Below are positions 13,719-50,370 of a stretch of DNA of 64,000 bases, one piece after another; positions within the stretch are counted from its first letter, which is position 1; every line of letters starts with the position of its first letter. The DNA is taken from IMG/VR virus record IMGVR_UViG_3300025693_000001, one strand, 5' to 3'. A program made the translations under genes and the position numbers. Source of the DNA: a virus. Its lineage: Duplodnaviria; Heunggongvirae; Uroviricota; Caudoviricetes. The notes under the pieces were generated by a model. That model did not search any database. It was given only the letters and a program-made list of their open reading frames with translations, and had not been told where the DNA came from.

Positions 13719-14831
13719 TCATTTTGTTTCCGTTTTTTCGTTTGAAATACCGTAGTTCTTCCAATTTTTCTTCATGGAAGCCTTGTAATCTACGGGACGT
13801 TGCATGTACAGGTTCATCACCAAGCCGAACTCTTGTTTGGTTAACTCTTGACCAGCTGTAATTGCGAAATCTTTGCGATCGTATCGTTCATTTGTTGCAA
13901 AAAAAGTTTCAACGGTGGAAACCATGTGGTTGTATCGTGTATCAACAAATTCTTGCATTTCATCGATAAGCACGATCGCTTGAGGGTCATCATAGAACAT
14001 TGAGCGCATATCGTCAACAGCATCATCAACACAAGCATCGAATAATCTACGTGGGCAGTTAATCGAATCTTTCGTGCGGTGCAACGACAAGTATTTTTCT
14101 GTTTTCAATTTGAACCACAAACCATCTGTAGTAATACAAACGAAGCCTTCAATGCTATCTGTCATGCGTGGTACAGATTCAACGAACGATACCACATCAT
14201 CTGTTTTTACGTTGGGGTATGAGTAGTCGATGAACGTTGACATAGAGGCAGGGCGATACAATCCTGTGGCAGTATCGCGGATATTCAATACAATCAATGC
14301 TGACTGCTCGTATCCTAACACGATTCGATTGTCGGGTCCCACCCATTCCAAGTTTACAGTGTGACCGTTTAGGGTGAAGTGCAACAAGTCCATTTTGAAG
14401 TCGATGTTCTCGTATTTGTTCAACCACTCCATAGCATCAATCGCTTGGACAGAAGCTAACGATCCTTTGGATTTTAGCCGCATTTCACTGCCATGCATGT
14501 ACGTTGAGATTAACGAACCATCCGACTTAACCATAATTCGATCAACAGTTGTTAGGTCAACATCCATAGTAAATGGATTTTCGTGCAAATTGTAGAATTT
14601 GTGCATAGGAAGTGCAGCTAATCTAATGGCATCCCCACATTCATCCAATTCAAACATAATACCTCGACATTCTTGCGCTGACGGTAAACAAAACAACGAA
14701 TATGATGCTAATCGATAGTTGAAAATTCGGTATTTAATGCGTTCGTGTGTGTGATCAGCGAAAAAGAAGGCATCGGTGGTTGATGTTAGGGCTATCAATT
14801 GATCGTATAAAGTTTGTTGGTATTGGTTCAT
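13719..14831 (-). CDS. rnlA: RNA ligase 1 (T4 RnlA-like, Rnl1 family)
   Basis: 371 aa from the ATG at 14831 (T4 RnlA is 374 aa). Nucleotidyltransferase motif I as MVKSDGSLISTYM (KxDGSL, compare T4 KEDGSL). The ORF-track start at 14867 is TTG. Confidence 0.75.
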   Translation of the reverse strand: MNQYQQTLYDQLIALTSTTDAFFFADHTHERIKYRIFNYRLASYSLFCLPSAQECRGIMFELDECGDAIRLAALPMHKFYNLHENPFTMDVDLTTVDRIMVKSDGSLISTYMHGSEMRLKSKGSLASVQAIDAMEWLNKYENIDFKMDLLHFTLNGHTVNLEWVGPDNRIVLGYEQSALIVLNIRDTATGLYRPASMSTFIDYSYPNVKTDDVVSFVESVPRMTDSIEGFVCITTDGLWFKLKTEKYLSLHRTKDSINCPRRLFDACVDDAVDDMRSMFYDDPQAIVLIDEMQEFVDTRYNHMVSTVETFFATNERYDRKDFAITAGQELTKQEFGLVMNLYMQRPVDYKASMKKNWKNYGISNEKTETK

Positions 14832-14876
14832 TAGTAAATATCCACATATGATTAAAAACAATAACAATACAACAAT

Positions 14877-32955: not shown

Positions 32956-34050
32956 TCATAATAGGTCAGCAATAACTGCGATGCGAAGATTATCGATTGC
33001 TACACCAATTTGCTTACCTTCCAACGTATGATTGGCCGGTAGCGAACGAAACGATATAAATCTGATGAGGTTGTGTCCTTGTATAACGCGATCGTATATC
33101 AACGCCCCTGATGGATTCACTACACTAATGGCGGTTGAAATATCGTAGAGCAATTCAGAAGTTTTTATTGTTTTTAAAAATCCCAATACAGCCTCTGGTG
33201 TTACATCGTTGCTCACCAATTGCATAGCATGTTGAAATGCTAGCACATCTCTGATTACTGATGATGGTGCTCGTAGCTTTGTTAATGCGTCAGAAGCATC
33301 CAGCATCGGTCCAAATAATATCATCATTCGGATGGCGGTGCTGCAATTTCTGAGTGTTGCCGATCTAAACGATTTTCCATTTGCTACCAGAGTTTTTGTT
33401 AGCCCTGGTATGATAACATTCAATGCTCCACATCGATGGAGTATCCAAAAAAACTCCATTGCATTTGGTAGCTCGATTGCTTTAGCTGTTTCAGCCCACA
33501 CACGTTCGGGTACCAAATGATCCACTTCACCGTTTGTGGTCATTGTTGTCATCAATTGCATTGTTTGTCTGGTTACATTGAACCCATACTTAGCGTTGAA
33601 TCTAGCTATTCGCAACAATCGTACTGGATCATCCGCGAAATGCTCGGATGTGTGTTTTAGTGTTTTGTTAACAAGATCTTGCAACCCACCACATGGATCG
33701 ATCACTTTGGTAACATCATGTGTTGTTTTGAACTGATCCCAATCAGATAGCAATACTGCCATTGAGTTAATAGTTAGGTCACGGCGTAGTAGATCTTCGG
33801 CTAAGGTAACGGTGGGATTGAAGTTCGTTTCGAACCCATTGTAACCGTTACCGTTTTTCCGCTCGGTTCTAGCTAATGCGTATTCATCGCCATTGGGGCA
33901 TAAGAATACGGGAAAGTCCGCTCCAACTTGCTTGTAGCCTAACGACTCCATCTCTTCGGGCGTTGAACCGACAACAACATAATCGATATCGTTTACTGGT
34001 TGGTTTAGTAAGGTGTCTCTAACGGCACCACCAACTACATATATTAACAT
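32956..34050 (-). CDS. cca: tRNA nucleotidyltransferase (CCA-adding enzyme, class II)
   Basis: N-terminal MLIYVVGGAVRDTLLNQPVNDIDYVVVG (GGxVRD...DxD head-domain signature); 364 aa. Confidence 0.85.
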   Translation of the reverse strand: MLIYVVGGAVRDTLLNQPVNDIDYVVVGSTPEEMESLGYKQVGADFPVFLCPNGDEYALARTERKNGNGYNGFETNFNPTVTLAEDLLRRDLTINSMAVLLSDWDQFKTTHDVTKVIDPCGGLQDLVNKTLKHTSEHFADDPVRLLRIARFNAKYGFNVTRQTMQLMTTMTTNGEVDHLVPERVWAETAKAIELPNAMEFFWILHRCGALNVIIPGLTKTLVANGKSFRSATLRNCSTAIRMMILFGPMLDASDALTKLRAPSSVIRDVLAFQHAMQLVSNDVTPEAVLGFLKTIKTSELLYDISTAISVVNPSGALIYDRVIQGHNLIRFISFRSLPANHTLEGKQIGVAIDNLRIAVIADLL

Positions 34051-37415: not shown

Positions 37416-37868
37416 CTATTTGTGTGATTTTAGATTGCGCAATGTTATTGTCGCATCAGTATCAAGTGTGTTTTCGTCATGGACGCTTTTTTTTGGCTTT
37501 TGCTCTGGTTGTATCTCTCGCTTGGGAAACATTTCTCTCCACCGTTTTTTGATTCGTGAGTTCGCTATGGCTACGTCATCATGCCATTCAAAATCAAAAA
37601 ATATCACCAAAGATGTGACTAATCCAATTACCAATCCTATCATGGCAATTATGATTTCGGGTTGTGTAAACCCTGATATCACTGTAAGCCTGTCGATATC
37701 CTTCGGGTTGTGTGGCACACTAACAACCAAACTGATAAATTGCCATCCAAAACTAATCCAGTACCCTATCACCGGAAAATGTCTACATTCGTTGTGATTT
37801 GACAATGCTACTATTGTGAACGTAATAGTAGTGAGAAAGATCATACATATAAAAAAAGTTAATATCAT
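37416..37868 (-). CDS. Membrane protein (150 aa, 3-4 TM)
   Basis: Hydrophobic helices; stop overlaps the NAMPT start region. Confidence 0.4.
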   Translation of the reverse strand: MILTFFICMIFLTTITFTIVALSNHNECRHFPVIGYWISFGWQFISLVVSVPHNPKDIDRLTVISGFTQPEIIIAMIGLVIGLVTSLVIFFDFEWHDDVAIANSRIKKRWREMFPKREIQPEQKPKKSVHDENTLDTDATITLRNLKSHK

Positions 37869-39289
37869 AATGTGTTAGTTGTGTTGAATCTAGTAGTACG
37901 AACTTCTTCCAATGTTGTAGTTCGCAATATTTTACCATTTAGGTACACAGGAGTGAGCATTTGTTCATCCATTGTTTTTGCCCCAATACAATCTGTTGTA
38001 AATTTACCTGCATCCGAACGGTATAACATTAATTGTCCACGTTTCGAGCGTTTACCGGTATCGGTAATCGGATCTTTGAATACATCGACCCACTCACCAT
38101 TGATAAATGCAGCACTTGCTTTATATGCCCATCTGCCAGTATCTCGATCCAGTTGTTGTAATAACGCACCACCCTGTCCAAATAATACATTTTCCGCACT
38201 GAACTTGTATCCAACCATCTTCGATAATATAGCATCAATGCTTTTGGTTGTAATGCCATCACCTTGCAACACTCGAACATGTTTTAGTACTTTATAGCCT
38301 TTGGTATTACGGATGTAACCGAATGCGGATTCAAGCAACAACATAATTTTTGTTACCACGGTTGCTGGATCACCACTATCAGGTCTGATAACTAGCCACC
38401 CATCACACTCAATAACCAATTCTTTCAGCTCATCACCCCAGATATGTTCAACTGCATTGAAAATATCGTACGAGTCGGATACCACAGAGAATGCGAAGAA
38501 CTTGTCTCCATATTGCTTCAACATATTGCGATATGCTTCTGTCTCCCGTCCCTTGCCCCATGTAGTAATTGAACTGTGTTCGGATGCTGGTACAGATTTT
38601 CCTGACATCTCATGCGAATATTGTCTATTTGCGTGAACTATACCTGGTACATTATCAGATCCTTTGAAATTTACCAAGTGTGCAGCTCCACCAATCATGG
38701 CACTTTCCAGTGAACTAACACCACGCGATCCGAAGTCATGCAACATAAAATCGATAGCATCTTCCTGTTCTTGTCCGGTTAAGTCGGATGTTGATTTCAT
38801 GTAACTCGTAATTACTTTTCTGGTGGTCCAGCTGTTGGTTGCTACTGTAGTTGGATACCACACACCACGTAATATCGATGGTTCGACGTGTGATGGTAAC
38901 CAAAAGCATTTCGGATCAGTATTAACGATAGTAACCAGTGCATTGCTTACCGGTACAACAGTACCTTCCGCCACCGACTTGATTTTTAACGGTAAGTAAC
39001 CGTTGTGCTCTTTTAATATGTGTTGCCATCCTTCTTTGTTGAATGGTTCACCATGAGCAGGCCAGAACAATTCCGCTTCGTCAATCATTTCTTGTGTGAT
39101 TGGTTTGCTCATGTATTCTTGTAAGAACATCTGCAATCCGAAGAATACCGTTTCATCGTATACCCCACCACGCGATTCAATATAGCAGTGAACATACTCA
39201 ATACCAGGGGGATACTGCAACCAATGGCTCGCTTTATATGAATCTGTGTTTAGTAAAATGTTAAAAACTGCGTGTTGTAAAAAGTTCAT
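37865..39289 (-). CDS. nadV: Nicotinamide phosphoribosyltransferase (NAMPT)
   Basis: Collinear with NAMPT across its whole length: FNILLNTDSYKASHWLQYPP, GWQHILKEHNGYLPLKIKSVAEGTVVP, LHDFGSRGVSS, AAHLVNFKGSDNVPG, IRPDSGDP, VLQGDGI, KRSKRGQL. Confidence 0.95.
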   Translation of the reverse strand: MNFLQHAVFNILLNTDSYKASHWLQYPPGIEYVHCYIESRGGVYDETVFFGLQMFLQEYMSKPITQEMIDEAELFWPAHGEPFNKEGWQHILKEHNGYLPLKIKSVAEGTVVPVSNALVTIVNTDPKCFWLPSHVEPSILRGVWYPTTVATNSWTTRKVITSYMKSTSDLTGQEQEDAIDFMLHDFGSRGVSSLESAMIGGAAHLVNFKGSDNVPGIVHANRQYSHEMSGKSVPASEHSSITTWGKGRETEAYRNMLKQYGDKFFAFSVVSDSYDIFNAVEHIWGDELKELVIECDGWLVIRPDSGDPATVVTKIMLLLESAFGYIRNTKGYKVLKHVRVLQGDGITTKSIDAILSKMVGYKFSAENVLFGQGGALLQQLDRDTGRWAYKASAAFINGEWVDVFKDPITDTGKRSKRGQLMLYRSDAGKFTTDCIGAKTMDEQMLTPVYLNGKILRTTTLEEVRTTRFNTTNTL

Positions 39290-40053: not shown

Positions 40054-41091
40054 TTACAACCGTCCCAACATATCAAAAATAATATCGTAGTGATCTTCAA
40101 ACAATTGATCGCGCATTTCTTTAATTGTGGTAATCGGAATCCATTGTGCTTTTTCAGCATCATCGCTTCCTTTCACTTTTGGAAGTCCACCTGGTGGTAA
40201 TTCGATACCGTAAGCATGTGTTATAGTTCTACCCCGTAAACTTCGGGCAGGGTGATCGTACACCTCTTGTATTTTGATATTCCCCCGTAATATAGGATCG
40301 GGCACCTTAATTTTAGTCTCTTCTCTTAATTCCCGTAACATAGCATCAATGAGAGTCTCGTTTGGATTTACAAACCCCCCGACAATAGCCCACAATCCTT
40401 TTCCTGGAGCCGATCGCCGTTTTACCAATAACACGTGTCCTGATTGCACCACTACAGCATCAACTGTCACGAAGATTGGTTCATATGGAGCTACAGCCCA
40501 AGCGGATTTATATTTCTGTATAAATTCATATTCATATTTCAGTTGTTCGAAGATAGGTTTTAGCTTCCATGCCAACAAGTATTCGTGAATAGCTTTTGGT
40601 AATGTTGGCATAACTTGTTTGCTGAAAAAGTCTGTTGAGTGTTCAAACAAAGCGACACGGATGTCAGTTGCGTGCAAGTCGTTGATATTAGGAACCTCAA
40701 CATGCTTCCATTGAGGAAACATTTTTAAGTAGAATGATGTGTCATCTTTAGTGTGACCGATCATTCCGATGTGGCTTCCTTCGGTGCTTAACGTTTCGAC
40801 CATTTTTTGGACTTGTGTAACCCAACGTTGATTGTTGTAAGCATCATCCGCAATGGGTGCAAATTGTACTCTGAGTTTTTCGCTATGAGATAGCGAGTTG
40901 CTGATCATTTCCGCACGTTCTTGCCATGACCAAGGATTTTTGATTGTCTTTGGTTGAAATGACGATCCGATTAGTATTATAACATTTTTGGATTGTTGTA
41001 ACGCAATTTTGATTGTTTCGATGTGTGCCAAGTGAGATGGCTGAAATCTACCAATGTACACGAGGTAGTCGTATTGTTCTTCTGTATTCAT
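40054..41091 (-). CDS. nadM: Bifunctional NMN adenylyltransferase / Nudix hydrolase (NadM-like)
   Basis: N-terminal YLVYIGRFQPSHLAHIE ((H/T)xGH-type nucleotidyltransferase motif); C-terminal Nudix box GGFVNPNETLIDAMLRELREETKI. Confidence 0.9.
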   Translation of the reverse strand: MNTEEQYDYLVYIGRFQPSHLAHIETIKIALQQSKNVIILIGSSFQPKTIKNPWSWQERAEMISNSLSHSEKLRVQFAPIADDAYNNQRWVTQVQKMVETLSTEGSHIGMIGHTKDDTSFYLKMFPQWKHVEVPNINDLHATDIRVALFEHSTDFFSKQVMPTLPKAIHEYLLAWKLKPIFEQLKYEYEFIQKYKSAWAVAPYEPIFVTVDAVVVQSGHVLLVKRRSAPGKGLWAIVGGFVNPNETLIDAMLRELREETKIKVPDPILRGNIKIQEVYDHPARSLRGRTITHAYGIELPPGGLPKVKGSDDAEKAQWIPITTIKEMRDQLFEDHYDIIFDMLGRL

Positions 41092-42792: not shown

Positions 42793-43047
42793 CTACGAAA
42801 ATACCATCCAGGCGAAGTATGCGTTCGTTATCACGTAAGACAAACCCACCGACATAACCAGAAATACGATAACAAATAGCACAGGCAATACACCTTGTAT
42901 GCTCAATGATGCTATTCGTTCGTATCTACCACCATACTTGCCTATGAACCCATTTCGGTAATCATTAAATAGGGTAGCCCACCAGACAACTAGGAATCCA
43001 TTAACGATTCCTAGAACCAATACCATAAGGAACAATAATGTATTCAT
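42793..43047 (-). CDS. Small two-TM membrane protein (84 aa)
   Basis: Two hydrophobic helices. Confidence 0.4.
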   Translation of the reverse strand: MNTLLFLMVLVLGIVNGFLVVWWATLFNDYRNGFIGKYGGRYERIASLSIQGVLPVLFVIVFLVMSVGLSYVITNAYFAWMVFS

Positions 43048-45023
43048 TATAACAACTGCATGAAGTCTTCAACTGTAATGATCTTTTTGCTTAGATCTCT
43101 GGCTTTCTTTAGTTTACCACTCGCACCGTTCACATCAACGGTCACAACGAGATCGGTGGTTTTGCTAACACCACTCTGTACTGTACCACCTTTCGACTCC
43201 ACAGCAGCTTGAAGTGGTTTATCACGAAAGCCGGTGAAGCATATTTTCATCCCAGCTAATTTAGCATCGGTTGGTGTTGCACTTTCAAGTGTTACCAGAT
43301 GCTTAACGATGGGGAAAAAGTCATTGAATGCGTTTATAGCGGCCATGGCGCCCGTAGCGGTGATGGTATCAAAGCCATCCAACGATTTGATCGATGATAT
43401 TGATTGGTTGGTGGTAAAGTTACCACCAACTGCTAGCTCAACCTTACGCATCTTTCGTATACCAATTCCACGTTGATTTGAGTGTGCACCTACTAGCTTG
43501 TGTAGTGTAATACCATTTAACTTTTCGTGAATGCTTTTGAATACTTTTTTCCCATTCTCACCCAGCACACCAACCAATTCAGCTTCGGTCATTGTTAGTA
43601 TCGATTCGGGTGTGTCAATTTTGCTATCAACTAATTTCGTTACATTGCCCATACCAAGAAACGCAATATCTAGTTTATCAAAGAAATCATATAACTGCTT
43701 GATTAATATGATGGAATGGTTGCTAATGTCGACTACCTTTGCATCCACACCGTCCCCTTTGTCTGTGGTAGACCAGGTCCAAACGCCGAACTGATCCATT
43801 TGATCATTGAACCACAAGTTGTATTCGTCATCAGACATTTCGTCGGTCTGTCCCAAAATCTTTGTTACATTAGGAACCACATCCCCCATACGAGAGATTG
43901 CCACTTTTGTGCCTGGTCTGATTTTGTTTTCTAGTAAGTATTTGGCGTTTAGGGCTGTAGCATGAACGATAGTAACACCGACCAGATTAACAGGTTTAAC
44001 GTGAAATCGTGGTTTTATGAATCCGTGTTTGGATAATCTCAGTTCAATCCAAGTAACTTCCGTTTCTGCGTAATTATCAGCATCTGTCGTTTTGTACTTA
44101 AATGAATATGATGGATTGAGGGCAGCAGCATTTGGACTGAGTCTCACACGCTCTAATTCGTCATCAACATCAACAACAATACCATCGATTTCATATTCAG
44201 CTTTCTCTTTTCGTTCTGTTAGGTATGCAATTAAGTCTGGATCATTCAGATCCCTACCCATCCGCGTTGCCAGAACGGGAACTTTAAAGCCGTACTCCAT
44301 TAGAGTATACAGCATTGCTGTTTTACTAAGAGTAACACCAACGATTTGGTATGATACGAATTTGAGAAATGAATACACGATATCCGGATTTGTTTTTGAA
44401 TTCATCAACCCTGCAACCATATTGCGAGCGTTTTTGTATTCTAAGCCCTGACGAGTAAACACTTTAGTTTTCAGGACATCAAACCCTTCTTTTGTTAGAA
44501 TGATTTCACCACGAATAGCCAACGATGTTGGGTGTGGTATTGATTTTGGTACAATTTTTGATAGGTGACGAGAAATATCCGCACCTTCCGTACCATCCCC
44601 ACGACTATAACCAATTTGAAACGGTTCATCGTTACCAGGATAGATTGCCATCGCACTAACACCGTCAAGTTTGTCGGTTATAACAAATCGTGATGTTGTT
44701 AATCGGTTATCAGAAACCCAAGCTTCTACATCATTCTCGAATATTTGGTTTAGACTGCCCATTTTATGTGGCAGTTTTACTTTACCACCACGGACAGCAC
44801 TTCCAACCCCAGTAAAATATACGTGGTGAGGAACGGAGAGTTGCAATTTGCGGCGTAGGATGTCGTATTGTGTGTCTGTTAGTGTTAAATCACCATCAGT
44901 ACTGTTGGCATATTCATCGTCGGCAGTCATTAGAATATCAATTAATTCCTGGGTTGAATGCTCTTCGATCAGTGTATCAATTAATTCGGTTGTGGATTTT
45001 GCTGCATCTGTGATAAAACTCAT
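43047..45023 (-). CDS. ligA: NAD+-dependent DNA ligase (LigA type)
   Basis: KxDG adenylation motif as ITDKLDGVSAMA at about residue 118 (E. coli K115); 658 aa; C-terminal BRCT-like KICFTGF...VSKTTDLVVT...SGKLKKA. Confidence 0.85.
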   Translation of the reverse strand: MSFITDAAKSTTELIDTLIEEHSTQELIDILMTADDEYANSTDGDLTLTDTQYDILRRKLQLSVPHHVYFTGVGSAVRGGKVKLPHKMGSLNQIFENDVEAWVSDNRLTTSRFVITDKLDGVSAMAIYPGNDEPFQIGYSRGDGTEGADISRHLSKIVPKSIPHPTSLAIRGEIILTKEGFDVLKTKVFTRQGLEYKNARNMVAGLMNSKTNPDIVYSFLKFVSYQIVGVTLSKTAMLYTLMEYGFKVPVLATRMGRDLNDPDLIAYLTERKEKAEYEIDGIVVDVDDELERVRLSPNAAALNPSYSFKYKTTDADNYAETEVTWIELRLSKHGFIKPRFHVKPVNLVGVTIVHATALNAKYLLENKIRPGTKVAISRMGDVVPNVTKILGQTDEMSDDEYNLWFNDQMDQFGVWTWSTTDKGDGVDAKVVDISNHSIILIKQLYDFFDKLDIAFLGMGNVTKLVDSKIDTPESILTMTEAELVGVLGENGKKVFKSIHEKLNGITLHKLVGAHSNQRGIGIRKMRKVELAVGGNFTTNQSISSIKSLDGFDTITATGAMAAINAFNDFFPIVKHLVTLESATPTDAKLAGMKICFTGFRDKPLQAAVESKGGTVQSGVSKTTDLVVTVDVNGASGKLKKARDLSKKIITVEDFMQLL

Positions 45024-45089
45024 TGGTAACCCTTATTTGTGTAATTGAGTATATTATAGGTTAAAGTGTTGTTGTTGTCAACCAACCAT

Positions 45090-45097
45090 TATAAATA
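45090..45097 (+). promoter_or_regulatory. T4-type late promoter box TATAAATA (plus strand)
   Basis: Exact octamer 29 nt upstream of the ATG at 45126, with AGGA between them. Confidence 0.5.
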
Positions 45098-45125: not shown

Positions 45126-45551
45126 ATGACTCAACCAACAATAGCCGATTATCAAGTTGACTTAACAGAGAGCTTGAAAGGTAAGATAGATTTAAACGAC
45201 ATCAAAGATGTAAGTGCCCCCGGACCTGCAGATGGTGAAGCATTGGTGTGGAATAACACAAACGCGAAATGGGAGTCTAGCATTTCTGCACCAGGTACAC
45301 ATTACATAGAGGTGACTGGAGCAGGTGTTGGTACAGTATTACCAGGCGGTTGGTCTGTTGTACGTGATAGTGCAGGAGTATACACGATAACACACAACTT
45401 GGGCAATTCGACGTTGGGATATGCAATCATGCAAGCTGATGCTGTAGCTATTGCTCAGTCTAGTAGTATAACAGCTACGACTACTAATACGTTTACTATA
45501 ACATTTAGTAGTGCAACTGATACTGATTTTGCTGGTCGTGTGATTACTTAA
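45126..45551 (+). CDS. Late-promoter-driven small beta-rich protein (141 aa), possibly virion-associated
   Basis: Late box plus Shine-Dalgarno; Thr/Ser/Gly-rich composition. Confidence 0.45.
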   Translation: MTQPTIADYQVDLTESLKGKIDLNDIKDVSAPGPADGEALVWNNTNAKWESSISAPGTHYIEVTGAGVGTVLPGGWSVVRDSAGVYTITHNLGNSTLGYAIMQADAVAIAQSSSITATTTNTFTITFSSATDTDFAGRVIT

Positions 45552-46309
45552 CTCACAGCATTTTCGTAATTGGTCATGCTGTGGTCTGATATTGATGGAG
45601 TACCATCACCATTACCAAGTTGCGATAACTCCACTGGGTGGTGGTAATAGAAAGGAAATGCAAACGGTACCATTGGTACGATGTCATCCTCGTAACGGTA
45701 TATTGTTATGGGAAATCGTACTGATGTATCTTCATTGTGTCGTTGTTTATTGTACACGAAGGTACGAGGACAAGCAAATCCAACATATTCAACAACCTCA
45801 TATCCATCATGTTTTAATAACATTCCTACGATAAGTGCTAGTGCCGCTCCAAGTGAATGTCCAGTTAGCACTACAGGCTTGTCTTTGTATATGTGAGACT
45901 TCAAGTCTTCAGTGATCCGTACAGCGCCTTTGAGAAAACCAGAATGTGCCCAACCTAACACTGGATGGTACCAAGGAATAAAGCGCATGTCGCGTATAAC
46001 ATCCATAAATCCCAAACCGGAGATTAATTGGCCTCCTTCTGTTCCTCGTATTGCTATAACTTGCTGGTCTTTCTTTAGTTCCACTAACACTTCACACTCG
46101 TTTGTCGAGAAAGTGTATGCGTCGTAGCTACGTGCAGCTGCTCGTGCTAATTCTTTGTGTGTAATTTGTTCCATTGCTATACTCCTGATAAAAACGTATT
46201 TAGGATTCACCACCATAAATACCAGGACAAGCACGATAACAATGATGTTATCATTTACACGGAATGAGGAAGGAAATTCATGGCTGATAATCACGATAGA
46301 CGCAATCAA
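45548..46309 (-). CDS. Class 3 lipase (alpha/beta hydrolase)
   Basis: VVLTGHSLGAALALIVG nucleophile elbow GHSLG. Confidence 0.8.
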   Translation of the reverse strand: MIASIVIISHEFPSSFRVNDNIIVIVLVLVFMVVNPKYVFIRSIAMEQITHKELARAAARSYDAYTFSTNECEVLVELKKDQQVIAIRGTEGGQLISGLGFMDVIRDMRFIPWYHPVLGWAHSGFLKGAVRITEDLKSHIYKDKPVVLTGHSLGAALALIVGMLLKHDGYEVVEYVGFACPRTFVYNKQRHNEDTSVRFPITIYRYEDDIVPMVPFAFPFYYHHPVELSQLGNGDGTPSISDHSMTNYENAVS

Positions 46310-46579
46310 AAAACTGTATGGGATATCTTGCCTGCGTTAGCTATGATAGGTAGCGTTATTACCGCATGGGTGAATCTAAACGGAGAGCTAACTCAAGTAC
46401 AAATACAGCAAGAATATAGTGAGAAATTCAACTCGGTAAAGATCGAAGAGTTGCAAAAAGATCTAACAACAATAAAACAATCGATCGCACATATAAAAAC
46501 TACCGATGCTGAGCTACAAGAGCAGTTATCGGATATGGAGCGTACCGTTACACACATATACTCAACCAACAAGAGATAA
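46280..46579 (+). CDS. Membrane-anchored coiled-coil protein (99 aa)
   Basis: GAGGAAGGAAA Shine-Dalgarno before the ATG; one TM, then a heptad-like region. Confidence 0.4.
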   Translation: MADNHDRRNQKTVWDILPALAMIGSVITAWVNLNGELTQVQIQQEYSEKFNSVKIEELQKDLTTIKQSIAHIKTTDAELQEQLSDMERTVTHIYSTNKR

Positions 46580-46584
46580 ACAAC

Positions 46585-47013
46585 GTGACTCGTATACTAA
46601 TAATGCTACTACTGGTAGCATCGCTTCGACACGCGCATGCCGAAACGGTAATACACACTGCTCCGCCTGCTGAAAAACTAACAGCAACGCAGACGTTTAA
46701 ATTGACAAACATATTTACCCGAAAAACAACAAAATGGGTATCAACAGGTGCAAAGATAACGGTGTTTATCCGTCCAATAAACTCAATCGAGCACAAACTT
46801 TTTGTTTTGCAGTGGTTAAACCTATCAAACTACCGATACAAAAAGTTATTACAACAAAATACGTTCTCTGGTATTTCATCAAGCGTAAAAACTATCATTT
46901 CCGATGAGCAAATGATGATTATAATTAAATCCACACCAAATTCAATTGGGTATGTGGGCGACTACATGGTATGGAATGATGATTCGGAAATTACTATTAT
47001 TACTGCTGATTAG
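46585..47013 (+). CDS. Secreted PstS-like (periplasmic phosphate-binding-protein fold, short form) protein
   Basis: Signal peptide MTRILIMLLLVASLRHAHA/E. KITVFIRPINSIEHKLFVLQWL and PNSIGYVGDYMV resemble PstS ...VVRRADGSGTSFVFTSYL and ...PGAIGYVEYAYA. GTG start. Confidence 0.4.
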   Translation: MTRILIMLLLVASLRHAHAETVIHTAPPAEKLTATQTFKLTNIFTRKTTKWVSTGAKITVFIRPINSIEHKLFVLQWLNLSNYRYKKLLQQNTFSGISSSVKTIISDEQMMIIIKSTPNSIGYVGDYMVWNDDSEITIITAD

Positions 47014-48052
47014 TTTTGTTCCGTTTGCTACACATGCACACGATCACGACACTAGAAGTTACATAGACAAACACTTTGATGTATCCGGATATGTTGGATA
47101 TCAATTTGTATACGGATCACCCGAACCGGAACCGGTTGAAAGCAGTCCGGAAGTTGGACTGTTGATCAATTACGACATATCATCTGAGTGGATGGCTTTT
47201 ACCCAATTCAGATTGGATACTGAGCACATGGAGCAATCAGTTGCATATGCATTTGTAGAGTACGACAGCGTGATAGCTGATGTCGTTCCAATAGAGCTAA
47301 CAGCTGGTAAGTTACGACATCACTACGGATTATACAACAAAGACCGTTTAAACCCACGAACACGACCAGGAAATGTTGCTCCACAAGCAATGTACTGGGA
47401 TCAATTGCGATATGCGTTGACAAGCGGTTGGGGTGTAGCAGTTGGAACATCATATGAAAATTGGTCGTTTAAATACACAATCACCACACCAATCGTGGTT
47501 GATAAGAAAGAAGAGTCTGTTATTTGGTTTTCTGGACGTCCGATAGAAGTAGAAACAAAATTTGGTGGTCATCAATTGATTAACATTGATTACATCAGAG
47601 ACGACTGGAGGGTTGTTACGGCGATAACGCTACAAGATTGGGGGCATGGAGCAGCAGGTAAAAATTATATTGTATCACTGGGTGGTGAAAAACGTTTTGG
47701 TGATGTAACATTATCACTAGAAGGGATGGCGGTGATGAAGTACTTGAATACATCATACGGTATTTCTGCTACTGCTCAGTATGATGTGTCGGATTTGATA
47801 TCTGTCCACGCAAATTATAACAGATACGAAGCCATCTTTAAGGATGATGCTATAGCTGCAATGCGTACACCACACACAATCATGTCAAACGATGCTAGTG
47901 TTGGAATTACGATACACCGCGACCAATGGGAAGTTAAAACAGAATATCACGTGGCTAAGGGAAGTATCTGGATTGATTACAAAACAGCATCCAACCCAGA
48001 ATTTGCCGATTTGTGGCATTACGGAGCAGTGTCAGTAGTATACCACTTTTAG
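46976..48052 (+). CDS. Outer-membrane beta-barrel protein (porin-like; possibly phosphate-selective porin O/P family)
   Basis: Signal peptide MMIRKLLLLLLISFVPFATHA; alternating hydrophobic beta-strand pattern; C-terminal ...VSVVYHF with terminal Phe, the outer-membrane-protein assembly signature. The ORF track starts at TTG 46946. Confidence 0.5.
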   Translation: MMIRKLLLLLLISFVPFATHAHDHDTRSYIDKHFDVSGYVGYQFVYGSPEPEPVESSPEVGLLINYDISSEWMAFTQFRLDTEHMEQSVAYAFVEYDSVIADVVPIELTAGKLRHHYGLYNKDRLNPRTRPGNVAPQAMYWDQLRYALTSGWGVAVGTSYENWSFKYTITTPIVVDKKEESVIWFSGRPIEVETKFGGHQLINIDYIRDDWRVVTAITLQDWGHGAAGKNYIVSLGGEKRFGDVTLSLEGMAVMKYLNTSYGISATAQYDVSDLISVHANYNRYEAIFKDDAIAAMRTPHTIMSNDASVGITIHRDQWEVKTEYHVAKGSIWIDYKTASNPEFADLWHYGAVSVVYHF

Positions 48053-48401
48053 GACTGTATAACAGCTCCCCGTCCAGCTCCAGTCATTCCGTAGTGGGTG
48101 TCTATGTTAGAAAAATGGGGATCGGTATCCCCCTTTATGTTTCTTTTTCTTTTTCGCTTTCTTGTGTGAATATTAATTTTCGTGGTTTTGTATTCTTTTG
48201 ATGATACCAATTCTTCAACTTTCATATGTCACCTATTCAAAAATGCACCAGGTGTACTACCTTGATGCGGACTTTGATTCCATCCAGCACTCAACTCGGG
48301 ATCTGCTGGGTTTTTAGCTTTACGTTTTATCATGGCTCTCATTCGTTTGAGAACTTCTGCTTTAGTTGGTTCAGGAACTACCTCGTGCACTTTCATCCTG
48401 G

Positions 48402-49213: not shown

Positions 49214-49570
49214 TTACCCAGTCGCATAAAACGCATCTGGGTGTTTGTTTTTCTTTTTCATATTTTCCGTATGTGGAATTATTCGTAAGTTTGATATGGT
49301 ATGCAATCCACTCACGAGTTTTCCGTTAATGGGATAGTAATGATCCACGGAGTGTATCATTAAAGTGGCTGTTGATATCGTTTTGGCTAACGCATACGTA
49401 TCACGGATCCACACCCGCTCGAGTGGTGTCATCCAATTAGGTGTTGCTCTTTTTTGTTGTTGATATCGTTTCGACATGCAAGCAACACACCGATTGCATT
49501 TTATGTATCGTATCCCGCTGTGTCCGTTTCGACAGGGTTTACCTTGGTATTGCGTGACTGATTGTGTCAT
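49214..49570 (-). CDS. HNH endonuclease (CRNGH subfamily, paralogue of 14877-15461)
   Basis: CRNGHSG...CNRCVAC and VDHYYPINGKLVSGLHTISNLRIIPHTEN. Confidence 0.6.
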   Translation of the reverse strand: MTQSVTQYQGKPCRNGHSGIRYIKCNRCVACMSKRYQQQKRATPNWMTPLERVWIRDTYALAKTISTATLMIHSVDHYYPINGKLVSGLHTISNLRIIPHTENMKKKNKHPDAFYATG

Positions 49571-50370
49571 TTTAATCTAGCTCGTTGTACATGCATGTAG
49601 TCACGATTCGTGGCACGTCCAAGAGATGTCCATTGTTCATCTTCCCAGATTTTCCACCACTCGTCGTACATTGGATTTGCAAAATTGGCACGTTGACTTC
49701 CCCACTTTAACTGATTTCTGGCACTATCCCAATCGATAGCAATACCCCAAGAGTGCATGGAGTAGTTGTTACCACCACGCATCTTACGAACATTCAAACA
49801 TCCAGCCCAAAGATCCATACCCAAATCGATGTATTGTTCGGATCCGTAATGATCCAGAACTCGATCTAACACACGAACGATACTATCAGCAACCTTTTCG
49901 TGACAAGTAAATCTGTTGATTTTTGTGTCAGTATCCCAAGCCAGACGTACAGCATGTGGCAAATCAACTTTTACTTGATTTGTACCCACTTCTCCGTAAT
50001 ATTTTACTAGGTCTTTGTAATTTTGTAAAGGAATATCCGATATAATACCAGGTGCTGGAACATTAACATCACCATCACGCCAAATTTGTTCTGGTTTATC
50101 ATGTTTGATTAAATACTTTAGTTGATCCAATGCGTATAATGTTTGTGGTCCCATGTATCCATCTATTGGTCCTCCATTGAATCCTTCAATAAAAGCATAC
50201 AACTGGATGAAACACACGATTTTGCGTTGATCCTTCCAAGGTAATGGGATTTGTGGAACGTGATCCAATGCTGCCATTGTTTTTGCACCAGCATCACCAT
50301 CAACGATCAAGTTCTGAGCGCAATGCTTATTCATACCAGTTTGTACTGTTTGTATTGTTTCTATATTCAT
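49567..50370 (-). CDS. Endolysin: peptidoglycan-binding domain plus peptidase M15 (L-alanyl-D-glutamate / D-Ala-D-Ala peptidase family)
   Basis: N-terminal DGDAGAKTMAALD (PG_binding_1-like); C-terminal SMHSWGIAIDWD (SxHxxGxAxD) of M15 peptidases. Confidence 0.8.
   Translation of the reverse strand: MNIETIQTVQTGMNKHCAQNLIVDGDAGAKTMAALDHVPQIPLPWKDQRKIVCFIQLYAFIEGFNGGPIDGYMGPQTLYALDQLKYLIKHDKPEQIWRDGDVNVPAPGIISDIPLQNYKDLVKYYGEVGTNQVKVDLPHAVRLAWDTDTKINRFTCHEKVADSIVRVLDRVLDHYGSEQYIDLGMDLWAGCLNVRKMRGGNNYSMHSWGIAIDWDSARNQLKWGSQRANFANPMYDEWWKIWEDEQWTSLGRATNRDYMHVQRARLK

Follow-up and report, generated by a model that had tools for sequence, protein, structure and literature searches.

A tightly packed cassette of three genes was found on the plus strand of a large uncultivated phage, at 46280-48052 of the window (the whole stretch of DNA that was analysed, 64 kb). 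Its gene anatomy, folds, ancestry and strict linkage characterize it as an envelope trio, consisting of an inner-membrane protein, a secreted half-binder and an outer-membrane barrel. The trio looks more like a sensing or lysis device than like a phosphate-uptake kit, which is how the sequence-only reading of this DNA had interpreted the second and third genes. The reading that we consider best, tentatively and well short of conviction, is a trans-envelope perception complex. The cassette and its nearest relevant neighbours are as follows.

46280..46579, plus strand: gene 1, 99 aa, ATG start, with GGAAGGAAA as ribosome-binding site ahead of the ATG
46585..47013, plus strand: gene 2 (half-PBP, here called the half-binder), 142 aa, GTG start, a secreted, single-lobe relative of PBPs
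46976..48052, plus strand: gene 3, a 358-aa outer-membrane protein, 16-stranded porin-type beta-barrel
47306..47398, plus strand: loop L3 segment of gene 3, residues 111-141 (GKLRHHYGLYNKDRLNPRTRPGNVAPQAMYWD), the end of strand 5 and most of L3
45548-46309, minus strand: class-3 lipase, neighbour of the cassette
49567-50370: M15 endolysin, 1.5 kb from the cassette

The sequence-only reading had placed two plus-strand ORFs at 46585-47013 (142 aa) and 46946-48052 (368 aa), next to a lipase and between genes on the minus strand, and we found both the ORFs and these neighbours as described. Genes 2 and 3 are real genes, far beyond chance, because identical proteins occur in public data for the two ORFs (E = 3e-243 and 4e-82) and homologues with identities down to 28% lie together on the same contigs. 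The 99-aa gene at 46280-46579 on the same strand had been overlooked as a member of the same conserved cassette.

The mechanical ORF of gene 3 runs from a TTG at 46946 to 48052 (368 aa). Its start lies more likely at ATG 46976 or 46979 (MMIRKLLLLLLISFVPFATHA/HD), which gives 358 or 357 aa and an overlap of ~35 nt with the end of gene 2; the version from the later ATG agrees with database protein P0001 of 357 aa. Signal peptides had been claimed for both products, and signal-like segments were indeed seen by eye and in a Kyte-Doolittle scan. In each of them a hydrophobic run follows a basic residue and precedes an A-x-A-type site, which is AHA/ET at the end of a signal peptide of ~residues 1-19 in gene 2 and THA/HD in gene 3.

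The predicted beta-barrel with a C-terminal Phe was also recovered. The gene 3 product ends in the beta-signal ...VSVVYHF, and AlphaFold2 modelled it as a 16-stranded barrel (pLDDT 79.3, pTM 0.77) with periplasmic turns of 2-4 residues and external loops of 8, 9, 35, 26, 7, 3, 14 and 16 residues. It thus has the 16 strands, short turns, long L3 and C-terminal aromatic residue of general 16-stranded porins. In porins with such a fold, the pore is constricted by L3. Among the 34 columns that are invariant in the phage barrels, 13 lie in the L3 stretch (residues 111-141), the most conserved segment of the family, and the 35-residue loop contains five K/R and two H versus two D/E. L3 probably folds into the pore; the local pLDDT of the model is only ~60.

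Foldseek matched the gene 3 model to OmpF, Omp32, OmpT and BpsOmp38 with E-values of 1e-12 to 1e-10, and ranked general porins level with OprP or higher. The number of strands is the same as in OprP/OprO, and identity to OprP/OprO and to general trimeric porins (OmpF, Omp32, OmpT, DcaP) is 8-14%. None of Porin_O_P, Porin_1 or Porin_4 matched gene 3. For Porin_O_P (PF07396) the window barrel gave no match at E <= 1, and two distant bacterial relatives of the barrel gave sub-threshold matches (19-20 bits versus a cut-off of 20.9). PHROGs, NCBIfam and Pfam contained no family for the barrel. A crude strand-parity count, made without model coordinates, assigned 5 K/R, 5 H and 13 D/E to the lumen, i.e. 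a net acidic wall, and an arginine ladder was not recognized by this count. The charge pattern, on the same crude count, is inverted in comparison with these known porins, in that L3 is basic and the wall opposite it net acidic. A Lom/Ail-type identity was rejected, given 16 strands and 358 aa versus 8 strands and ~170-200 residues, and no Ail_Lom Pfam match.

Gene 2 descends, as judged from profile alignments, from PstS-type binding proteins and has been reduced to lobe II. The window protein scored 19.4 bits (E = 9.5e-4) against Pfam PBP_like_2 (PF12849), below the gathering threshold of 27 bits, and 9 of the 11 family members gave a sub-threshold match to profile positions 100-185 of 267 (best E 9e-6). 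When a 48-sequence profile was compared with PDB, each of the eight best matches (E ~1e-5) was a binding protein for phosphate or a close relative among the ABC binding proteins. Hence, the PstS likeness noted earlier holds at the profile level, but the single sequence stays under the PBP_like_2 cut-off. A Lom/Ail-type barrel and a non-PBP fold had been named as outcomes contrary to the sequence-only reading; what we obtained was 16 strands and PstS-type profile matches.

The gene 2 profile aligns to residues ~80-218 of PstS chains of ~265 aa, i.e. to lobe II, and lobe I is absent from the mature product of ~120 aa. Judged from length and alignment, the 142-aa protein is not a two-lobed Venus flytrap of ~250-320 residues. 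Where PstS has the canonical phosphate motif R..GSGT, gene 2 has P.NSIEH. In the alignment with 4q8r, 'SREDGSGTRDAF' stands opposite 'LPdnsplHkeF' (NSIEH in the phage), so that Ser alone is retained, and the half-binder family has an invariant His where the following Arg stood. An AlphaFold2 model from an 8-sequence alignment reached a pLDDT of 37. Like PstS, including the full-length cyanophage PstS, gene 2 is secreted to the periplasm. Unlike PstS, which has 250-320 aa and is linked to pstCAB, it has a porin gene and a membrane-protein gene as its linked neighbours.

To find bacterial counterparts, we encoded the L3 motif of the bacterial barrels by hand as a degenerate DNA pattern, which was run over 185,579 species genomes and yielded at least 120 loci; a genome scan with a close half-binder alignment gave no match. 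In an hhalign comparison, the phage barrel family aligned over its full length with the bacterial neighbour gene (probability 98.7%, E = 4e-16). Among the matches listed, the gene immediately upstream of the barrel was the half-binder in 100 of the 107 bacterial loci with enough flank, and the gene immediately downstream a homologous sensor in 66 of 86. This sensor is a membrane protein with dCache_3, PAS, GGDEF and EAL domains. Furthermore, 39 of the 122 barrel loci listed, about a third, contained a TIGR03694 (LuxI/FeeM-like) acyltransferase, an assignment with 264 bits versus a cut-off of 112. The cluster is widespread in nitrifiers, methanotrophs, halomonads and other bacteria, with Vreelandella titanicae BH1, Nitrosomonas halophila Nm1 and Methylomicrobium lacus as example carriers. 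From its gene content it looks like a signal-to-c-di-GMP pathway, and literature searches on dCache_3 with GGDEF and on TIGR03694 returned nothing relevant to it.

The bacterial half-binder and barrel are homologous to genes 2 and 3 and have the same order and the same tight packing. The L3 motif R/K..G.YN..R..P..R....PQ..Y.D is conserved in the bacterial barrels, and the gene 2 motifs IFTRK..W, NSIEH and SIGY are common to the bacterial homologues, in the shared form IF..R..W / H..F / IGY. In contrast, the dCache_3-GGDEF-EAL sensor and the TIGR03694 acyltransferase were absent from all phage loci and from the window, and the phage cassette instead has the coiled-coil gene 1 upstream. The phage copies of both half-binder and barrel were monophyletic in neighbour-joining trees, forming a clade of their own apart from those of the bacterial cluster. 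These results support a bacterial origin of phage genes 2 and 3, from a signalling gene cluster, and the suspicion that the pair is host-derived is supported in so far as its source is bacterial.

The same results bear on phosphate (or other anion) acquisition, by which an OprP-like anion channel and periplasmic phosphate capture would feed phage DNA synthesis. Gene 2 belongs to the PstS family by descent, but as a one-lobed binder it has kept only the Ser of R..GSGT. Likewise, the pore loop L3 is strongly basic, but it sits in a barrel without a Porin_O_P match, to which general porins are nearly as close as OprP and whose wall is net acidic by the crude count. The window does encode other metabolic helpers, NadV and NatV. 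However, c-di-GMP sensors accompany the bacterial homologues, and an unsystematic look at the annotated flanks of the listed loci and at the surroundings of the phage cassettes showed neither pst nor pho genes. Moreover, uptake leaves gene 1, the invariably linked gene for an inner-membrane coiled-coil protein, without a role. We regard phosphate acquisition as very unlikely. Of the phosphate module proposed earlier, the bacterial origin and the PstS/PBP_like_2 descent remain, whereas the uptake function and the phosphate porin are not supported.

The order gene 1-gene 2-gene 3, tightly packed, was conserved in all 15 distinct phage-type loci examined, the window included. Between phage clades, just 2-4 cassette ORFs were common within ~6-8 kb, which resulted in at least seven neighbourhood types that were otherwise unrelated. 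Because 15 of 15 loci keep the order while so little else is common between clades, we treat the cassette as a unit. Phage barrels have diverged down to 28% identity, and therefore seem to have been retained for long under selection. Relatives were absent from 50,697 deposited phage genomes, both by megablast of the region and by tblastn of three divergent phage barrels, and a literature search for phage-encoded porins yielded nothing relevant.

Some phages, among them lambda with Lom and PA-2 with the porin Lc, have genes for outer-membrane proteins close to tail-fibre genes. In some of the loci examined (L001/L002 and L024), the cassette likewise follows tail-fibre-like genes (DUF4376, Laminin_G_3 and giant proteins). 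This arrangement agrees with remodelling of the envelope, in which a phage porin and its partners would replace or mask host surface proteins, so as to block superinfecting phages, to prevent progeny from sticking to debris, or to sustain nutrient flow after host porin synthesis stops. Predicted viral structures do include a few porin-like proteins, which also fits; in a BFVD fold search with the barrel, all porin-like matches from viruses were remote (TM <= 0.64, identity <= 13%). Exclusion genes are usually lineage-specific, however, whereas this cassette is intact across deeply diverged phages and has conserved motifs. Apart from L3 and L4, the barrel has only short external loops, which would offer little surface for receptor masking, and the half-binder and gene 1 are left unexplained. 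Exclusion or maintenance of this kind therefore strikes us as highly improbable.

Gene 1 encodes a bitopic inner-membrane protein. A few basic N-terminal residues (..HDRR..) precede its membrane helix at ~residues 13-31 (the hydrophobic maximum of a Kyte-Doolittle scan), which is followed by a periplasmic coiled coil of ~65 aa and a conserved C-terminal motif, D-M-E-R-T-V-T-H-I-Y. Wherever the upstream flank of a distinct phage locus was recovered, a homologue of gene 1 immediately preceded the half-binder gene. By homology gene 1 is phage-specific, because no match to it was found in the bacterial loci (n >= 120). In most phage lineages the product has one or two cytoplasmic WDGxxRR motifs, whereas in the window's own clade the cytoplasmic part is only ~12 residues long. 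A Tat signal was rejected, as the RR motif is too distant from the membrane helix in most homologues. The idea that gene 1 is what is left of the bacterial sensor was likewise rejected, since hhalign found no similarity between the two.

With its membrane helix at the N-terminus, its coiled coil in the periplasm and conserved residues at the C-terminus, gene 1 has the architecture of an i-spanin, as in the two-component spanins lambda Rz/Rz1 and T4 PseT.3/PseT.2. As in these systems, gene 1 directly precedes the genes for a putative outer-membrane partner. The main rival to a perception complex is accordingly a non-canonical spanin, with gene 1 as the inner-membrane subunit, the barrel as the outer-membrane end and the half-binder as connector. 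After the endolysin has removed the cell wall, the complex would disrupt or fuse the outer membrane and thereby complete lysis. PHROG 739, 'Rz-like spanin', was matched by 10 of the 15 gene 1 family members, and other members matched PHROGs 7686 and 214 of the same name. These matches are weak (best E 3e-5) and may reflect a mere composition of membrane helix plus coiled coil; matches of the family in PDB were generic coiled coils. The M15 endolysin 1.5 kb off would suit a lysis role, but in distant phages the precomputed Pfam annotation contained no recognized lysis gene near the cassette.

Unlike two-component spanins, the phage cassette has no lipoprotein o-spanin, and a porin-type barrel with a soluble adaptor would have to take its place. 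No plausible lipobox ORF was detected anywhere in the 64-kb window, nor within or adjoining the 15 phage cassettes, except for one doubtful 39-aa ORF near L008; an o-spanin hidden in or beside gene 1 was rejected, as no such ORF was detected. This absence speaks for the non-canonical spanin. A canonical spanin pair could nevertheless lie elsewhere, because only 64 kb of a genome of ~278-325 kb is visible, and the searchable literature contains no description of a beta-barrel spanin. Furthermore, the pore loop L3 is the most conserved segment and the half-binder motifs are kept, which is unexpected for mere anchors, and the ancestral bacterial pair occurs in signalling operons rather than lysis operons. 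On balance, we consider a spanin of this type possible but unlikely.

In the trans-envelope perception complex that we tentatively favour, a three-part device would span the envelope of the infected Gram-negative host from inner to outer membrane. The gene 3 product would be a 16-stranded porin-type channel in the outer membrane, with a basic L3 that lines or gates the pore, and the gene 2 product a periplasmic receptor or adaptor beneath this channel. The gene 1 product would be anchored in the inner membrane and extend its coiled coil across the periplasm, where gene 2 or gene 3 would probably dock on its C-terminal motif. We infer physical contacts among the three products, as well as a ligand and an output.

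The complex could have arisen by a single capture of genes 2 and 3 from a bacterial module that would combine a channel in the outer membrane, a binder in the periplasm and a c-di-GMP-setting sensor in the inner membrane. The phage would have retained the channel and the binder with their motifs, and put a small membrane protein of its own in the place of the c-di-GMP enzyme. Retention of the ancestral activity is suggested because the L3 and half-binder motifs are common to bacteria and phages, the phage copies are monophyletic, and the barrels have diverged down to 28% identity. Most likely, the device would perceive a small molecule from outside the cell or from the periplasm, or let it pass through a gate, and would relay this to the inner membrane late in infection, because the pair is encoded with a sensor in the bacterial module and its motifs are kept in the phage. 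Control of lysis timing as the output is a guess.

ChiP-CBP-ChiS in Vibrio and LuxP-LuxQ follow a three-layer logic, in which a channel is combined with a binding protein in the periplasm and with a membrane protein that has a periplasmic domain. The cassette resembles these systems by analogy in its layered logic, and has no sequence relationship to them. Unlike them, it has a single-lobe binder, and the phage membrane partner has no recognizable output domain.

Several observations argue against perception. The ~12-residue cytoplasmic part of gene 1 in the window's clade leaves little for signalling into the cell, and the i-spanin likeness of gene 1 fits a lysis role at least as simply. In addition, the phage and bacterial inner-membrane partners have no similarity detectable by hhalign, and the functional analogy to the bacterial module is one of gene context. 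A combination of both roles can be envisaged as well: large phages may have taken the receiving end (channel and receptor) of bacterial cell-to-cell signalling, which in bacteria is found beside a LuxI/FeeM-like signal synthase and a c-di-GMP sensor, and wired it to the spanin-like gene 1, so that lysis would be timed or triggered by a signal of the host population. This idea is speculative and quite unlikely.

The outer-membrane proteins known from phages are mostly small accessories of temperate phages, and the known PstS proteins of phages are full-length uptake helpers. The cassette differs from both, as a three-gene, envelope-spanning unit that is intact across deeply diverged large phages and has a barrel without relatives in PHROGs or the deposited phage genomes. 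Its function would add to the ways in which large phages affect the Gram-negative envelope, either a new means of sensing the outside or a new means of breaking the outer membrane. If the phages do listen to a host signal, such a trans-envelope, porin-based sensor or spanin hybrid would have no described precedent among viruses. On the bacterial side, the analysis exposes a widespread, unnamed cluster of acyltransferase, half-binder, porin and c-di-GMP sensor that is testable in cultivated strains.

Two candidate regulatory elements border the cassette.

46214..46221, plus strand: CATAAATA, ~59 nt upstream of gene 1, with one mismatch to the T4-type late promoter TATAAATA
48117..48132, both strands: hairpin GGGGATCGGTATCCCC, G+C-rich, between the end of gene 3 and convergent minus-strand genes

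The first is a weak candidate late promoter for gene 1, because exact copies of TATAAATA were not enriched in the window (5 found versus 5.4 expected), and T4-type late promoters in general were dropped from consideration on this count. The hairpin was picked up on both strands by the terminator scan, and as a consensus match it is a candidate two-way terminator that would end the cassette.

The plus-strand open reading frames of 142 and 368 aa reported in the sequence-only reading were both recovered, and together with a third gene they form a cassette:

46280-46579, plus strand: gene 1, 99 aa, with a good ribosome-binding site
46585-47013, plus strand: gene 2, 142 aa, the half-binder
46946-48052, plus strand: gene 3, the barrel, 368 aa as the mechanical open reading frame

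Gene 3 most likely starts at the ATG at 46976 or 46979 (MMIRKLLLLLLISFVPFATHA/HD), which gives an overlap of ~35 nt with the end of gene 2 and agrees with the 357-aa database protein P0001. As had been predicted, signal-peptide-like segments were found at the N-termini of both the gene 2 and gene 3 products; the latter ends in ..VVYHF.

HMMs built from all three gene families were run on the phage-type loci. All 15 distinct loci examined (the window, L001, L003, L005, L008, L009, L011, L014, L016-L021 and L024) contained genes 1, 2 and 3, with identical order and close packing. Between clades, only 2-4 ORFs, those of the cassette, were in common within ~6-8 kb of flank. Hence, the cassette occurs in at least seven different neighbourhoods. 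The first protein search returned 17 homologues of the barrel and 8 of the gene 2 protein; identical and related proteins came from metagenome-derived data only, and locus inspection showed that the two families share contigs. Among the cassette contigs are some of very large size (450 kb for L008), with phage-type genes for ribonucleotide reductase, a T4 gp15-like protein and giant proteins of structural size. The window itself derives from a large phage: proteins identical to those of its genes 2 and 3 lie on contigs of 277,870 and 324,905 bp. Its ligase was at most 39% identical to jumbo-phage ligases, and searches of PHROGs and of 50,697 deposited phage genomes found no relative of the barrel.

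The proposed PstS-like nature of the small protein held in part. Gene 2 of the window alone scored below the PBP_like_2 threshold; 9 of 11 family members matched this profile. Moreover, all best PDB matches of a profile of 48 phage and bacterial half-binders were PstS-type structures (E ~1e-5). However, the family aligns to lobe II alone of PstS-type binders, and their R..GSGT motif is degenerate in gene 2, which has P.NSIEH at that place.

Gene 3 matched no family in Pfam, NCBIfam or PHROG, and a check of the barrel against the Porin_O_P HMM gave no match. The AlphaFold2 model, made from a 16-sequence alignment, is a 16-stranded barrel (pLDDT 79.3, pTM 0.77); its Foldseek matches to general porins had E-values of 1e-12 to 1e-10. 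OprP ranked 13th by E-value, yet had the best query TM-score (0.66). The predicted topology corresponds to a classic porin, with periplasmic turns of 2-4 residues and a third loop of 35 residues. This loop is basic and forms the conservation hot spot, with 13 of the 34 invariant columns. A crude parity count gave a net acidic character for the wall residues that face the lumen. No close match was found among predicted viral structures.

Bacterial homologues place both proteins in another setting. On a bacterial contig, P0080, a distant half-binder homologue, precedes a 407-aa protein and, after that, a GGDEF-EAL membrane protein of 816 aa. The 407-aa protein is homologous to the phage barrel over its full length (hhalign probability 98.7%, E 4e-16). 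An exhaustive search with the HMM of the phage barrel family yielded 622 representative proteins, 36 of them at E < 1e-30; the weaker matches examined were proteins of ~400 aa, most of which belonged to no Pfam family. The bacterial L3 motif, used as a degenerate DNA pattern against species genomes, detected at least 120 loci. Carriers among the matches listed include Halomonas/Vreelandella, Nitrosomonas, Nitrosospira, Methylomicrobium, Thiobacillus, Accumulibacter, Neptuniibacter and Microbulbifer, as well as Nitrospira, Polyangiaceae, Desulfobacterales and Flavobacteriales bins. In 100 of the 107 listed loci with enough flank, the half-binder gene immediately preceded that of the barrel, on the same strand. 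A homologous sensor (dCache_3, PAS, GGDEF and EAL domains) lay directly downstream in 66 of 86 listed loci, and in several of the remaining ones it was adjacent on the opposite strand. Furthermore, 39 of 122 barrel loci among the matches listed contained a GNAT protein, encoded immediately before the half-binder or immediately after the sensor, that matches TIGR03694 ('PEP-CTERM/exosortase system-associated acyltransferase') at 165-264 bits (cut-off 112) and resembles FeeM and autoinducer synthases more weakly.

The four-gene cluster of LuxI/FeeM-like TIGR03694 acyltransferase, half-PBP, porin-like outer-membrane protein and dCache_3-PAS-GGDEF-EAL sensor is widespread; its carriers include nitrifiers, methanotrophs, halomonads, Thiobacillus and Accumulibacter (e.g. 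L064:1971-7429, L042:1-5447 and L051:3200-8001, among the bacterial loci L025-L144). It looks like a signal-to-c-di-GMP circuit and is apparently unstudied so far; we found no paper on it. Some bacterial loci have two porin-like gene copies, for example in tandem (L035:3862-6300) or one on each side of the half-PBP gene (L063:1110-4532).

Among the annotated flanking genes of the listed bacterial loci, no pst or pho genes were seen. The phosphate-uptake module envisaged in the sequence-only reading seems improbable: structural hints remain, but the binder is single-lobed with a degenerate motif, the Porin_O_P match is lacking, the charge pattern of the barrel and the bacterial gene context argue against it, and gene 1 is left unexplained.

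In neighbour-joining trees, the 15 phage barrels and the 16 phage half-binders each formed a single clade, the latter with a pair of gammaproteobacterial sequences as sister. The anatomy and ancestry of the cassette are well supported; its function we infer. In bacteria, the gene context suggests a circuit of channel, binder and sensor that feeds c-di-GMP. The phage has retained the channel and binder with their conserved motifs, an argument that the ancestral activity, as channel or in binding, is still of importance, and has put a small protein of its own in place of the inner-membrane partner. On the basis of this context and the retained motifs, we tentatively favour a complex that spans the envelope and serves perception or gating as a possible function. 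Exclusion or porin replacement seems improbable, as it does not explain why all three parts are so deeply conserved.

Gene 1 has a membrane helix at residues 13-31, the rest being coiled coil. Its 15-member family has a cytoplasmic N-terminus, a single membrane helix and a coiled coil of ~65 residues closing with a conserved Q-I-x-x-L-E-x-T-V-x-Q-x-Y. The N-terminus bears the motif WDGxxRR once or twice; in the window's clade only ..DRR.. is left of it. In most homologues (L008:6513-6971, L009:6507-6989, L011:94-555, L016-L020) the motif precedes the helix and is often doubled (e.g. WDGRERR...YDGDDRR); it matched no known motif. PDB matches were generic coiled coils, and 10 of 15 members weakly matched PHROG 739 'Rz-like spanin'. 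Bacterial loci contained no gene 1 homologue, and a relation to the bacterial sensor was rejected, the two having no similarity.

The main rival, a spanin-like lysis device, draws on the resemblance of gene 1 to an i-spanin and on the absence of a lipoprotein partner in the window and beside every cassette. We consider it rather unlikely, since it agrees poorly with the conservation of the pore loop and with an ancestry in signalling, and a canonical spanin could lie outside the window, which is part of a genome. That a bacterial signal receptor was captured and coupled to a spanin-like protein, so that the phage times lysis by a host population signal, is unlikely as well, and slightly more so. 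The folds of the cassette proteins are known, their combination is not; we rate it as a variant of a porin, a binding-protein remnant and an Rz-like anchor.

The window also encodes:

13719-14867, minus strand: T4 RnlA-type RNA ligase/tail-fibre attachment catalyst homologue
32956-34050, minus strand: CCA-adding tRNA nucleotidyltransferase
37865-39289, minus strand: NadV-like nicotinamide phosphoribosyltransferase (PHROG 448, E 1e-155)
40054-41091, minus strand: NatV-like NMN adenylyltransferase/NUDIX fusion
43047-45023, minus strand: NAD-dependent DNA ligase
45053-45081, minus strand: perfect sigma-70 consensus promoter (TTGACA, 17 nt, TATAAT; 12/12), just upstream of the DNA ligase gene
45090-45097, strand opposite the sigma-70 promoter: exact T4-late-type TATAAATA, before the 141-aa ORF
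45126-45551, plus strand: 141-aa ORF, weak PHROG matches (head decoration, unknown families)
45548-46309, minus strand: class-3 lipase
49214-49570, minus strand: 118-aa gene with weak PHROG matches to endonuclease VII, its start overlapped by the endolysin
49567-50370, minus strand: M15-family endolysin with peptidoglycan-binding domain

Near the endolysin (49214-50370), neither a holin gene nor one for a lipoprotein spanin was recognised. The 141-aa ORF and lipase lie just upstream of the cassette, a synteny conserved in the window's clade (also L005:6146-7202), and this secreted-type lipase may be functionally connected to the envelope genes beside it. The RNA ligase and the tRNA nucleotidyltransferase are RNA-repair-type functions. 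The NadV/NatV-type NAD salvage pair also occurs in the related phage locus L005, which further encodes a 190-aa release-factor-like protein with PCRF/RF-1 domains (L005:14005-14577). A PanD-like aspartate decarboxylase is present on two related phage contigs (L001:11560-11898 and L005:10532-10894).
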